A program made the position numbers and the translations under genes. From IMG/VR virus record IMGVR_UViG_2874920711_000014: 36,540 bases of DNA. One strand, written 5' to 3'. This DNA comes from a virus. Taxonomy: Duplodnaviria > Heunggongvirae > Uroviricota > Caudoviricetes. The notes beneath the pieces were generated by a model that saw only the letters and a program-made list of their open reading frames with translations, did not search any database and was not told where the DNA came from. Shown here piece after piece: positions 1,952-4,635 of the stretch. Numbering within the stretch: the first letter of the stretch is position 1; the number at the start of each line of letters is the position of its first letter.

Positions 1952-2073
1952 TAGGTAAAGCGTTTCTCCATGCAGCAGTTCATTCCGGTAGTTTAAGATA
2001 TGAAGTGGCACACTGAATTTGGCCACCTGAACAGAGGTGATATGCTCACCTCAGAACAACACAGGTGCTCCAA

Positions 2074-2149
2074 TGAAAAAAAGAAATTTTAGCGCAGAGT
2101 TTAAACGCGAATCCGCTCAACTGGTTGTTGACCAGAAATACACGGTGGC
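2074..2149 (+). pseudogene. insN: IS911 orfA, N-terminal 25 codons only, cut by IS600-like left end
   Basis: atgaaaaaaagaaattttagcgcagag... translates [26 protein letters not shown], then the IS600-like terminus TGAGGTAGCC begins. Confidence 0.7.
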
Positions 2150-2213
2150 TGAGGTAGCCTGAGTTTAACGGACACTCCTTCCTGAAATAGAATGGCATCA
2201 GAAGGAGCTAATA

Positions 2214-2476
2214 ATGAGCAGAAAAACCCAACGTTACTCTAAAGAGTTCAAAGCCGAAGCTGTCAGAACGGTTCTTGAAAATCAATTTTCGATCAGTGAA
2301 GGCGCTTCCCGATTATCCCTTCCTGAAGGCACTTTAGGACAATGGGTTACCGCCGCCAGAAAAGGGCTCGGTACTCCTGGTTCCCGCACGGTGGCTGAAC
2401 TGGAATCTGAAATTCTGCAACTGCGTAAGGCGTTAAATGAAGCTCGCCTTGAGCGAGATATATTAAAAAAAGCAAC
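2214..2476 (+). pseudogene. IS600-like (IS3 family) orfA, truncated after ...ERDILKKAT by IS30
   Basis: Track ORF 2214..2582 starts MSRKTQRYSKEFKAEAVRTVLENQ... and reads into the IS30 end. Identical to orfA at 9278 and 26350(-). Confidence 0.75.
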
Positions 2477-3697
2477 TGTAGATTCAATTGGTCAACGCAA
2501 CAGTTATGTGAAAACATGGGGTTGCGGAGGTTTTTTGAATGAGACGAACATTTACAGCAGAGGAAAAAGCCTCTGTTTTTGAACTATGGAAGAACGGAAC
2601 AGGCTTCAGTGAAATAGCGAATATCCTGGGTTCAAAACCCGGAACGATCTTCACTATGTTAAGGGATACTGGCGGCATAAAACCCCATGAGCGTAAGCGG
2701 GCTGTAGCTCACCTGACACTGTCTGAGCGCGAGGAGATACGAGCTGGTTTGTCAGCCAAAATGAGCATTCGTGCGATAGCTACTGCGCTGAATCGCAGTC
2801 CTTCGACGATCTCACGTGAAGTTCAGCGTAATCGGGGCAGACGCTATTACAAAGCTGTTGATGCTAATAACCGAGCCAACAGAATGGCGAAAAGGCCAAA
2901 ACCGTGCTTACTGGATCAAAATTTACCATTGCGAAAGCTTGTTCTGGAAAAGCTGGAGATGAAATGGTCTCCAGAGCAAATATCAGGATGGTTAAGGCGA
3001 ACAAAACCACGTCAAAAAACGCTGCGAATATCACCTGAGACAATTTATAAAACGCTGTACTTTCGTAGCCGTGAAGCGCTACACCACCTGAATATACAGC
3101 ATCTGCGACGGTCGCATAGCCTTCGCCATGGCAGGCGTCATACCCGCAAAGGCGAAAGAGGTACGATTAACATAGTGAACGGAACACCAATTCACGAACG
3201 TTCCCGAAATATCGATAACAGACGCTCTCTGGGGCATTGGGAGGGCGATTTAGTCTCAGGTACAAAAAACTCTCATATAGCCACACTTGTAGACCGAAAA
3301 TCACGTTATACGATCATCCTTAGACTCAGGGGCAAAGATTCTGTCTCAGTAAATCAGGCTCTTACCGACAAATTCCTGAGTTTACCGTCAGAACTCAGAA
3401 AATCACTGACATGGGACAGAGGAATGGAACTGGCCAGACATCTAGAATTTACTGTCAGCACCGGCGTTAAAGTTTACTTCTGCGATCCTCAGAGTCCTTG
3501 GCAGCGGGGAACAAATGAGAACACAAATGGGCTAATTCGGCAGTACTTTCCTAAAAAGACATGTCTTGCCCAATATACTCAACATGAACTAGATCTGGTT
3601 GCTGCTCAGCTAAACAACAGACCGAGAAAGACACTGAAGTTCAAAACACCGAAAGAGATAATTGAAAGGGGTGTTGCATTGACAGATTGAATCTACA
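2477..3697 (+). mobile_element. IS30 copy 1 (1221 bp), 2-bp TSD AC (2475-2476 and 3698-3699)
   Basis: Ends TGTAGATTCAATTGGTCAACGC ... GCATTGACAGATTGAATCTACA; intact 383-aa transposase inside. Confidence 0.95.
2539..3690 (+). CDS. insI: IS30 transposase (383 aa, intact)
   Basis: Track ORF 2539..3690, MRRTFTAEEKASVFELWKNGTGFSEIANILG...; full length, also identical to the copy at 9548..10699(-). Confidence 0.95.
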   Translation: MRRTFTAEEKASVFELWKNGTGFSEIANILGSKPGTIFTMLRDTGGIKPHERKRAVAHLTLSEREEIRAGLSAKMSIRAIATALNRSPSTISREVQRNRGRRYYKAVDANNRANRMAKRPKPCLLDQNLPLRKLVLEKLEMKWSPEQISGWLRRTKPRQKTLRISPETIYKTLYFRSREALHHLNIQHLRRSHSLRHGRRHTRKGERGTINIVNGTPIHERSRNIDNRRSLGHWEGDLVSGTKNSHIATLVDRKSRYTIILRLRGKDSVSVNQALTDKFLSLPSELRKSLTWDRGMELARHLEFTVSTGVKVYFCDPQSPWQRGTNENTNGLIRQYFPKKTCLAQYTQHELDLVAAQLNNRPRKTLKFKTPKEIIERGVALTD

Positions 3698-3765
3698 ACC
3701 GCGCTCTTGATGTCAGACTCCCTGAACAGTTCTCGATAATCGGGAAACTCAGAGCGCATTATCCT

Positions 3766-4635
3766 GTGGTCACACTCTGCCAAGTGTTCGGGGTTCATCG
3801 CAGCAGCTACAGATACTGGAAAAACCGTCCTGAAAAACCAGACGGCAGACGGGCTGTATTACGCAGTCAGGTACTTGAGCTACATGGCATCAGCCATGGT
3901 TCGGCCGGAGCAAGAAGCATCGCCACAATGGCAACCCGGAGAGGCTACCAGATGGGACGCTGGCTTGCTGGCAGGCTCATGAAAGAGCTGGGGCTGGTCA
4001 GTTGTCAGCAGCCGACTCACCGGTATAAACGTGGTGGTCATGAACATGTTGCTATCCCTAACTACCTTGAAAGGCAGTTCGCCGTGACCGAGCCAAATCA
4101 GGTGTGGTGCGGTGATGTGACCTATATCTGGACGGGTAAGCGCTGGGCGTACCTCGCCGTTGTTCTCGACCTGTTCGCAAGAAAACCAGTGGGCTGGGCC
4201 ATGTCGTTCTCGCCGGACAGCAGGCTCACCATGAAAGCGCTGGAAATGGCATGGGAAACCCGTGGTAAGCCCGGCGGGGTGATGTTCCACAGCGATCAGG
4301 GCAGTCATTATACGAGCAGGCAGTTCCGGCAGTTATTGTGGCGATACCAGATCAGACAGAGTATGAGCCGGCGCGGAAACTGCTGGGATAACAGCCCAAT
4401 GGAACGCTTCTTCAGGAGTCTGAAGAACGAATGGATGCCGGTGGTGGGTTACGTAAGCTTCAGCGAGGCAGCTCACGCCATAACGGACTATATCGTTGGA
4501 TATTACAGCGCACTAAGACCGCACGAATATAACGGTGGGTTACCCCAAACGAATCGGAAAATCGATACTGGAAAAACTCTAACTCGGTGGCCAGTTTTTG
4601 TTGACCACTTCAATCTGACAACTGCCGAATCGTGA
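3766..4635 (+). CDS. insO: IS911 OrfB transposase (DDE integrase domain); reads past the IS911 right end
   Basis: Track ORF 3766..4635 ...[28 protein letters not shown]...[13 protein letters not shown]...; stop lies 23 bp beyond the IS end at ~4612, suggesting a C-terminal frameshift. Confidence 0.85.

Follow-up and report, generated by a model that had tools for sequence, protein, structure and literature searches.

A recurrent IS30 landing site in the frameshift window of IS3-family insertion sequences, and an IS911/IS600/IS30 mosaic in a Rac-like prophage

Three copies of the insertion sequence (IS) IS30 are present in the window, by which we mean the whole 36,540-nucleotide (nt) stretch analysed here (Caudoviricetes virus record IMGVR_UViG_2874920711_000014), and all three were found at the same dinucleotide in orfA of IS600, an element of the IS3 family. 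Three IS30 insertions cannot have met on one dinucleotide by chance. The evidence assembled below leads us to the view that IS30 very probably targets the -1 frameshift window of IS3-family elements again and again, and that the copies parked there then break their hosts and join them into hybrids, one of which occupies positions 2001-4612. Family assignments were made from NCBIfam and Pfam matches and from the RefSeq annotation of near-identical Escherichia coli loci. The hosts show the features of IS3-family members: OrfA matches PF01527, orfA and orfB overlap at an A6G/A7 slippery heptamer, and OrfB matches NF033516.

The three IS30 copies were located by an exact-match scan for the IS30 termini, at 2477-3697 (+), 9541-10761 (-) and 23954-26087 (-), and IS600 left ends lie at 2150 (+), 9214 (+) and 26414 (-). 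A sequence-only reading of the window had placed IS30 at one identical IS600 orfA position in three elements, with an AC duplication at each and with the IS30 of copy 2 inverted relative to its host, and the termini scan bore out all of these coordinates. Each copy is preceded by IS600 orfA sequence ending in ...ATATTAAAAAAAGCA-AC (equivalent to ...GAGCGAGATATATTAAAAAAAGCA-AC), and the left junction reads ...gagcgagatatattaaaaaaagcaAC joined to TGTAGATTC in three of three copies. AC stands on both sides of IS30 at 2475-6/3698-9 and 9539-40/10762-3, and GT (+ strand) at 23952-3/26088-9; a 2-bp target duplication is thus seen at all three copies, although at copy 1 it is uninformative, the two ACs there belonging to different hosts. 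The termini are imperfect inverted repeats of ~26 bp (TGTAGATTCAAT...), and both the left and the right inverted repeat (IRL and IRR) were present at every copy. Copies 1 and 3 run in the direction of their IS600 host, whereas copy 2 runs against it, with its IRR-type tip at 9541 and its IRL at 10761, so that both orientations occur at one position. Copies 1 and 2 are each 1221 bp long and 100% identical over that length. Single-nucleotide polymorphisms among the three copies, sought in order to place a crossover, were absent. The elements concerned are as follows.

2001-2149 (+): IS911 left end, nt 1-149 (IRL and orfA start), with an IRL match at 2001; abutted by the IS600 left end
2150-2476 (+): IS600 left part, nt 1-327 (IRL and orfA to ...ILKKA-T(AC))
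2477-3697 (+): IS30 copy 1, 1221 bp, with terminal repeats, AC/AC flanks and an intact 383-aa transposase (2539-3690)
3698-4612 (+): IS911 right part, ~nt 334-1250 (orfA end, orfB and IRR), NF033516
9214-13033 (+): IS600 copy 2, complete, interrupted by IS30 (9541-10761, AC/AC) and by IS2 (11268-~12597)
9541-10761 (-): IS30 copy 2, running against the IS600 that carries it
23015-26414 (-): IS600 copy 3, complete, with IS30 in the host orientation
23954-26087 (-): IS30 copy 3, inactivated by an IS5-family insert and a G4->G3 frameshift
2458-2476 (+), 9522-9540 and 26088-26106 (-): head half-site GATATATTAAAAAAAGCA-AC of the IS3-family -1 frameshift window

The sequence 3' of IS30 copy 2, ACAGCGTATTTTGCAC... 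/ ACAGCGTATTTTGC... (T-AYFAQESLKNTR and stop), is that of IS600. A 3-bp duplication was found neither at IS600 copy 2 (ACC at 9211-9213 and CTC at 13034-13036) nor at IS600 copy 3 (CAG at 23012-23014 and TTG at 26415-26417). We read the missing 3-bp duplications as a sign of later rearrangement and not as evidence against IS3-family identity; copies 2 and 3 of IS600 have apparently exchanged flanks with other copies. IS30 copy 3 is broken in two ways: a 911-bp IS5-family element is inserted at 24063-24973 with a CTAG duplication, and a 1-bp deletion (G4->G3) at window position ~25233, about IS30 coordinate 856, breaks the open reading frame (ORF). The IS5-family element matches NF033580 and has terminal GCTGTGTCCC... 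repeats and a split transposase frame; it is absent from the corresponding IS30 copy of locus L016, a close relative of the window with 99.5-99.9% identity in unique DNA.

Region 2001-4612 is a dead, four-part nested mosaic, IS911 (nt 1-149) / IS600 (nt 1-327) / IS30 / IS911 (~nt 334-1250), in which the IS30 is intact. Its outermost left part, 2001-2149, aligns with the IS911 head of E. coli K-12 and of L016. The IS600 part stops 4-5 nt beyond the A7 slippery run and is 100% identical to the IS600 heads of copies 2 and 3; its OrfA matches PF01527, and the homologous piece is annotated in RefSeq as an IS600-family element. The transposase of IS30 copy 1 scored 276 bits against the IS30-family model NF033563 (cutoff 80). 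The sequence 3' of this copy, ACCGCGCTCTTGATG..., is that of IS911; the IS911 right end lies at 4612, RefSeq labels the homologue of 3698-4612 as IS911 family, and the IS3-family transposase model NF033516 matches 3766-4635 (and also 23058-23876). A single IS30 therefore stands between the halves of two insertion sites, with an IS600 head on its left and an IS911 tail on its right. The outer flanks of the mosaic read ATA and ATC, and not the expected 3-bp target duplication. Copy 1 had been read earlier as a hybrid of IS600 head and IS911 tail; that much stands, whereas the IS911 left end at 2001-2149 had been overlooked, and the hybrid turns out to be nested in an IS911. This additional end makes a purely local deletion model possible, as in the IS911B/IS30D/IS600 arrangement of K-12.

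The generality of the site was assessed by scanning three public collections with the exact 25-nt IS30 left terminus, which returned 40 loci in viral contigs, 37 in a collection with one genome per species and at least 120 in metagenomes. The one-genome-per-species loci come from more than 20 genera, including Yersinia, Serratia, Erwinia, Kluyvera, Raoultella, Shewanella, Ferrimonas and Nitrincola. Among the 197 IS30 left flanks listed, 87 were of the head type, with in-frame (I/F)LK(K/Q/E)(A/T) followed by the 2-bp duplication, and 51 were of the tail type, the reverse complement of the sequence just downstream, in which IS30 is inverted in the site. Together the two types, abutting ILKKA, make up at least 70% of the left ends listed. 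The other flanks include many single-base variants of the site and some that lie in divergent IS3-family elements (tblastn). Clustering the head flanks at 85% identity gave ~14 clusters, corresponding to at least 12 distinct host orfA types, and all eight host ORFs tested (IS600, IS911 and 6 others) were HTH_Tnp_1 (PF01527). IS30 occupies the ILKKA codon in IS600, in IS911, in an ISEhe3-like element, in a relative of IS911 and in at least eight further IS3-family orfAs. The hot spot that the sequence-only reading had proposed for IS600 and IS911 is thus strongly supported, and it is broader than proposed.

Both flanks could be compared for 94 of the IS30 copies listed, and those with matching 2-bp duplications were taken as intact composites. 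The same IS600 or IS911 dinucleotide was used in both orientations:

IS600::IS30: same orientation 14, inverted 1
IS911::IS30: same orientation 7, inverted 6
ISEhe3-like::IS30: same orientation 3, inverted 3
IS911 relative::IS30: same orientation 3, inverted 2

From the combinations of host and orientation, the minimum number of independent IS30 insertions is ~20. IS30 itself was found in 3825 of 5426 complete E. coli genomes, and the junctions of the two window hosts with IS30 were found in the following numbers of these genomes, which measure prevalence and not the number of events:

IS911 head-IRL: 1039 of 5426
IS911 head-IRR: 1216 of 5426
IS600 head-IRL: 1284 of 5426
IS600 head-IRR: 850 of 5426

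Some loci depart from the common pattern. Three viral contigs (L008, L018 and L030) carry an orfA with IS30 at the usual position and an expanded (GAAATA)n repeat directly upstream, which encodes IEIEIE...ILKQT. At the right flank of L094 and the left flank of L058, IS30 ends lie in IS3-family orfA away from the frameshift window; the L094 flank is IS600 ...GAAATTCTGCAACT, ~52 bp upstream of the point where IS30 usually enters the IS600 of the window. These off-site ends are secondary sites or deletion endpoints. The ISEhe3-like dinucleotide variants (GC, GT and AC) were considered as carry-over of an IS30 donor spacer, but since matching head and tail variants exist they are better explained as natural polymorphism of the host IS at a GCG/GTG/ACG codon.

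To avoid circularity, the sequence basis of the target was derived from IS30-adjacent half-sites outside IS3-family elements only. The position weight matrix was built in two versions, the first from 48 half-sites and the second from 41, after removal of flanks with tblastn similarity to IS3-family OrfA/OrfB. The half-site consensus is 5'-TnAAnaAcGnn+NN, where NN is duplicated, which makes the full site a quasi-palindrome of ~24-26 bp; this agrees with the description of the non-inverted-repeat targets of IS30 as 'nearly palindromic' (PMC9333248). The reconstructed uninterrupted sites scored 15.4 bits in IS600, 16.0 bits in IS911 and 14.4 bits in the ISEhe3-like element, the highest of 36,504 window positions scoring 13.9 bits, and the observed IS30 position was the single best-scoring one inside each reconstructed host IS. 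The head half, TTAAAAAA(G/A)GCnNN, contributes most of this score; it consists of the slippery A6G/A7 heptamer and the next Ala codon. The head half-site scored 10.7-11.9 bits, and only 3 of 73,008 window half-sites reached this level, the number of its copies in the window. The frameshift window of IS2, GGGCAAAAAAGTGG, had a low score, and neither of the two IS2 copies of the window carries IS30. When positions 33200-33520 of phage lambda were scored with the same matrix, the top position was coordinate 33290, with 9.3 bits; the left half of the experimentally defined lambda LHS hot spot is 33244-33290 (PMC9333248). Judged by this profile score, the IS3-family frameshift window is a better match than lambda LHS (14-16 versus ~9 bits).

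Given these observations, sequence-specific hot-spot (HS) integration would account for the dinucleotide that the IS30 copies share. In the mechanism that we propose, the frameshift window ATA TTA AAA AA(A/G) GCN NN (ILKKA), with its slippery A6G/A7 heptamer, would act as the head of the target and, together with the partly symmetric downstream nGCG.A/T-rich sequence, would make a near-optimal quasi-palindromic IS30 target. In either orientation, IS30 would enter 4-5 nt beyond the 3' end of the heptamer, with duplication of 2 bp (AC in IS600 and IS911). The OrfAB transposase of IS911 and of the IS3 family at large is made by frameshifting. Insertion would cut the slippery site off from the orfB frame, as well as from a stimulatory structure that may lie downstream, so that the host IS should make no OrfAB fusion transposase. 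The terminal repeats of the host would stay intact, and it is conceivable that the composite could be mobilised in trans. The parked IS30 copies would then be 1.2-kb identical repeats and, at the same time, substrates of the IS30 transposase, and exchange or deletion between two of them would leave one host's head joined to a different host's tail. At the locus in question the partners would be the IS30 of an IS600 inserted at IS911 nt 149 and an IS30 at the IS911 hot spot, nt 334. An exchange with an IS30 in a second, inverted IS911 would form the hybrid and invert the prophage DNA between the two; by an alternative route, a second IS30 could enter the hot spot of the neighbouring IS911, with subsequent deletion between direct copies. 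We infer the order of events at the locus, as we do the agent of the joining step, RecA or the transposase.

Hybrids of this kind were frequent: of the 94 listed IS30 copies that could be compared on both sides, ~40 had mismatched flanks. Two loci (L010 and L158) carry the reciprocal arrangement, with an IS911 head before IS30 and an IS600 tail after it, another (L012) has an ISEhe3 head-IS30-IS911 tail hybrid, and head-IS30-head, tail-IS30-tail and IS3/non-IS3 combinations were also seen. A hybrid with an IS600 head and an IS911 tail around IS30, 99.4% identical to 2150-4612, was also found in four complete genomes of E. coli; it has outer flanks other than those of the window and a GT/AC non-duplication, which implies that this class of hybrid formed more than once. 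At 3281-3331 of L001 (E. coli JX21CE8), the IS600-like head of the hybrid ends in ...AAAAAAAGCCGT, not in ...GCAAC, and its last five bases match the ISEhe3-like variant head of L012; possible explanations are a micro-chimera formed inside the shared ATATTAAAAAAAGC and an IS600 variant as yet unseen.

The close relative L016 shares the flanks 1-799/1948-2149 and 24974-36540 with the window, yet joins them differently, as X-IS911 (nt 1-334)-IS30(-)-IS600 head(-)-Y. The differing joints identify IS30 as a rearrangement breakpoint between sister genomes. No single event can derive both L016 and the window from a common ancestor, because L016 has IS911 nt 1-334 and an inverted IS30 at the same flank. 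A single inversion between IS30 copies 1 and 2 that would restore simple structures was considered and rejected: it gives head-IS30-head and tail-IS30-tail products. The flank Y (26415 onwards) was also considered as an IS911 fragment, as in K-12, but its profile match is to an IS66-family transposase fragment. Recombination between two IS30 copies, as the sequence-only reading had it, is consistent with the mismatched flanks, with L016 and with the Rac flanks described below, although it is unproven at this locus.

Several points weigh against the conclusion that IS30 targets the frameshift window repeatedly and that hybrids follow. Many of the E. coli junction counts probably represent old, vertically inherited loci and not independent events. 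Copies 1 and 3, which share an orientation, could descend from one IS30 insertion, the IS600::IS30 having been copied or recombined, in which case the window alone proves only two independent insertions into IS600. The target profile that ranks the site first is an empirical one, separate from the published 24-bp consensus (Olasz 1998). The window contains no reciprocal product; AC/AC at copy 1, together with the identity of the IS30 copies, leaves no mark of a crossover and no proof of two IS30s; and from assembled sequence alone a mis-join inside identical IS30 copies is conceivable. Such an assembly error as the origin of 2001-4612 nevertheless seems very unlikely to us. IS30 copies 1 and 2 are identical over 1221 bp, and a short-read assembler could switch paths within them; however, 3 IS30, 3 IS600, 2 IS2 and 2 IS630 copies were resolved within 36 kb, as is typical of finished or long-read assemblies, and equivalent hybrids occur in complete E. 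coli genomes, K-12 included.

The identical positions might also stem from the copying of one IS600::IS30 composite, by IS600 transposase in trans or by recombination. This would suit the shared orientation and the 100% identity of head and IS30 in copies 1 and 3, as well as the presence of same-orientation IS600::IS30 beside many different right-end flanks. It does not suit copy 2, in which an inverted IS30 with AC/AC is beyond simple recombination between copies, nor does it suit the spread of the insertions, which strike the same codon of no fewer than 12 unrelated IS3-family hosts, IS30 pointing either way, and the site is the one that best matches a profile obtained from non-IS3 targets; on the whole we consider copying unlikely. 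More improbable still, and in our judgement hardly tenable, is survivorship alone, whereby IS30 inserts widely and just the neutral insertions inside other IS elements persist. Insertions in dead or redundant IS copies should indeed be nearly neutral, and some IS30 flanks do lie elsewhere in IS3-family elements (L094 and L058); but survivorship predicts scatter across the host IS and across other IS families, and at least 70% of the flanks fall on one top-scoring dinucleotide.

As for the joining step, it is quite possible, if on balance somewhat doubtful, that it was performed by the IS30 transposase and not by RecA recombination. The transposase could have acted by insertion of IS30 into the nearby IS911 hot spot followed by joining of inverted repeats (IR-IR joining, a site-specific deletion) and dimer dissolution, or else by intramolecular hot-spot targeting that deleted the IS600 tail and IS911 nt 150-333. 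IR-IR joining of two IS30 copies is documented (PMC9333248), and both in the window and in the KpLE2 mosaic of K-12 (see below) the IS600 tail is lost and the lost DNA runs exactly from the IS30 IRR to an IS911 hot spot ~1.1 kb away. On the other side, scans of the window and of ~200 loci turned up no IR-IR junction intermediate, and non-contiguous, inverted IS911 flanks fit exchange between distant copies as well or better. The sequence does not separate the two agents, since one IS30 copy is indistinguishable from the next, AC is the duplicated pair at either site, and an IR-IR junction was not found. Two junctions that bear on the nesting, IS911 (nt 149) joined to IS600, and the IS600 right end followed by IS911 from nt 150, were both absent from the ~200 loci.

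The mosaic sits exactly at an inversion breakpoint in a Rac-like prophage. To its left lies Rac intR, and to its right (4613-9213) lie Rac ydaV-ydaU-ydaT in the reverse of their K-12 orientation; intR and the inverted ydaV-ydaT flank were contiguous in none of 5426 E. coli genomes. The Rac-like remnants cover 1-799, 1948-2000 and 4613-9213; ydaV-ydaU-ydaT are inverted in order and orientation relative to K-12, with 84-97% identity, and the prophage remnant has no recET-racR segment. IS sequence makes up more than 40% of the first 27 kb of the window and belongs to at least nine families or types. Two inverted IS630 copies lie at ~800-1948 and ~6438-7590; the first interrupts intR and is absent from L016, and the second abuts a truncated IS2 at 7593-8849 (1257 of 1331 bp), a full IS2 being inserted in IS600 copy 2 (11268-~12597). 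IS600 copy 3 is inserted in an IS66-family transposase gene (26430-27320), the ORF of which matches model positions 125-386 of 387. L016, collinear in other respects, lacks the ISEc20-like IS110-family element at 31452-32895; the 484-aa ORF of this element matches NF033542 ('RNA-guided transposase'), and the element is 99.5% identical to copies in Stx-phage records.

A wider reading, which we put forward tentatively, is that IS30 in nature lands chiefly in the -1 frameshift window of the IS3 family (..ATATTAAAAAAGGCnNN..), and that IS30 is a parasite of IS3-family elements. If so, this target would hold roughly 70% of the sampled IS30 copies in Enterobacterales and some other Gammaproteobacteria. 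IS30 would gain a multi-copy, host-neutral 'safe harbour' and might hitch-hike in composites that are still mobilisable, while it would knock out the OrfAB of its host and seed recombination by which IS3-family elements, and the genome around them, are rearranged. The hot spot itself explains a recurrent pattern that annotation records but leaves uninterpreted; examples are insN/insI1/insO of K-12 and the 'partial transposase' label found in E. coli and Shigella genomes by the thousand. It predicts IS30 in any IS3-family element with the frameshift window TTAAAAAAGGC/AGC, and it marks IS30 copies nested in IS3-family elements as likely breakpoints when IS-rich genomes, Shigella for example, undergo inversion or deletion. 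The site also offers a compact natural target, above lambda LHS by profile score, for the study or use of IS30 targeting, and is an example of one transposon family systematically disabling another. That the preference of IS30 for this site is adaptive would be conjecture.

Parts of this picture were known already. The IS30 at IS911 nt 334 has been mapped in K-12, and IS911B/IS30D/IS600 is annotated in MG1655; hot-spot targeting by IS30 with 2-bp duplications is likewise established, for example at lambda LHS (Olasz et al. 1998, cited in PMC9333248), as is the joining by IS30 of the inverted repeats of two, sometimes distant, copies, which leads through an IR-IR junction to deletions, inversions and cointegrates (PMC9333248). 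In the literature searched, which lacked Olasz 1998, we found no statement that the IS3-family frameshift window is the dominant natural target of IS30, nor that nested IS30 is a major source of IS3-family hybrids. The mosaic of the window is accordingly a known mechanism at a natural hot spot, and it is the general hot spot that we did not find described.

The nearest counterparts of the mosaic are in E. coli. K-12 carries IS911A::IS30A (CP4-6), with IS30 at IS911 nt 334/335, the same dinucleotide. In KpLE2 of K-12 (L202, MG1655 4507125-4509801) the order is IS911B (nt 1-334)-IS30D(-)-IS600 (nt 327-1)(-)-IS911B (nt 455-1250), a mirror image of the window mosaic in which the IS600 left end again abuts internal IS911 sequence and the IS30 IRR abuts the IS911 hot spot. 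IS600 entered IS911 differently in the two cases, at nt 149 (+) with the tail side kept in the window and at nt 454/455 (-) with the head side kept in K-12, and the locations differ as well, a Rac-like prophage and KpLE2, respectively. The slippery run of the KpLE2 IS911 is A5, not A6. E. coli K1G has an ISEhe3-IS30-IS911 hybrid with IS30 at IS911 nt 334 and 'no DR' (PMC13463583, 2026). There too the IS911 head has been swapped for that of a related IS3-family element, a type also present in L012, although the head donor is ISEhe3 and not IS600; its authors call the shared position 'interesting', without a family-wide hot spot (PMC13463583). Compared with lambda LHS, the site described here has in common the 2-bp duplication, the use of either orientation and a nearly palindromic target, but it differs in being a functional element of another transposon family that is present in many copies per genome. 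Insertion of the IS1397/IS621 type into REP/BIME (PMC1525189) is similar in being sequence-specific, multi-copy, largely neutral and directed at a palindromic target; the transposase families are unrelated, however, and IS30 strikes inside a mobile element and inactivates it.

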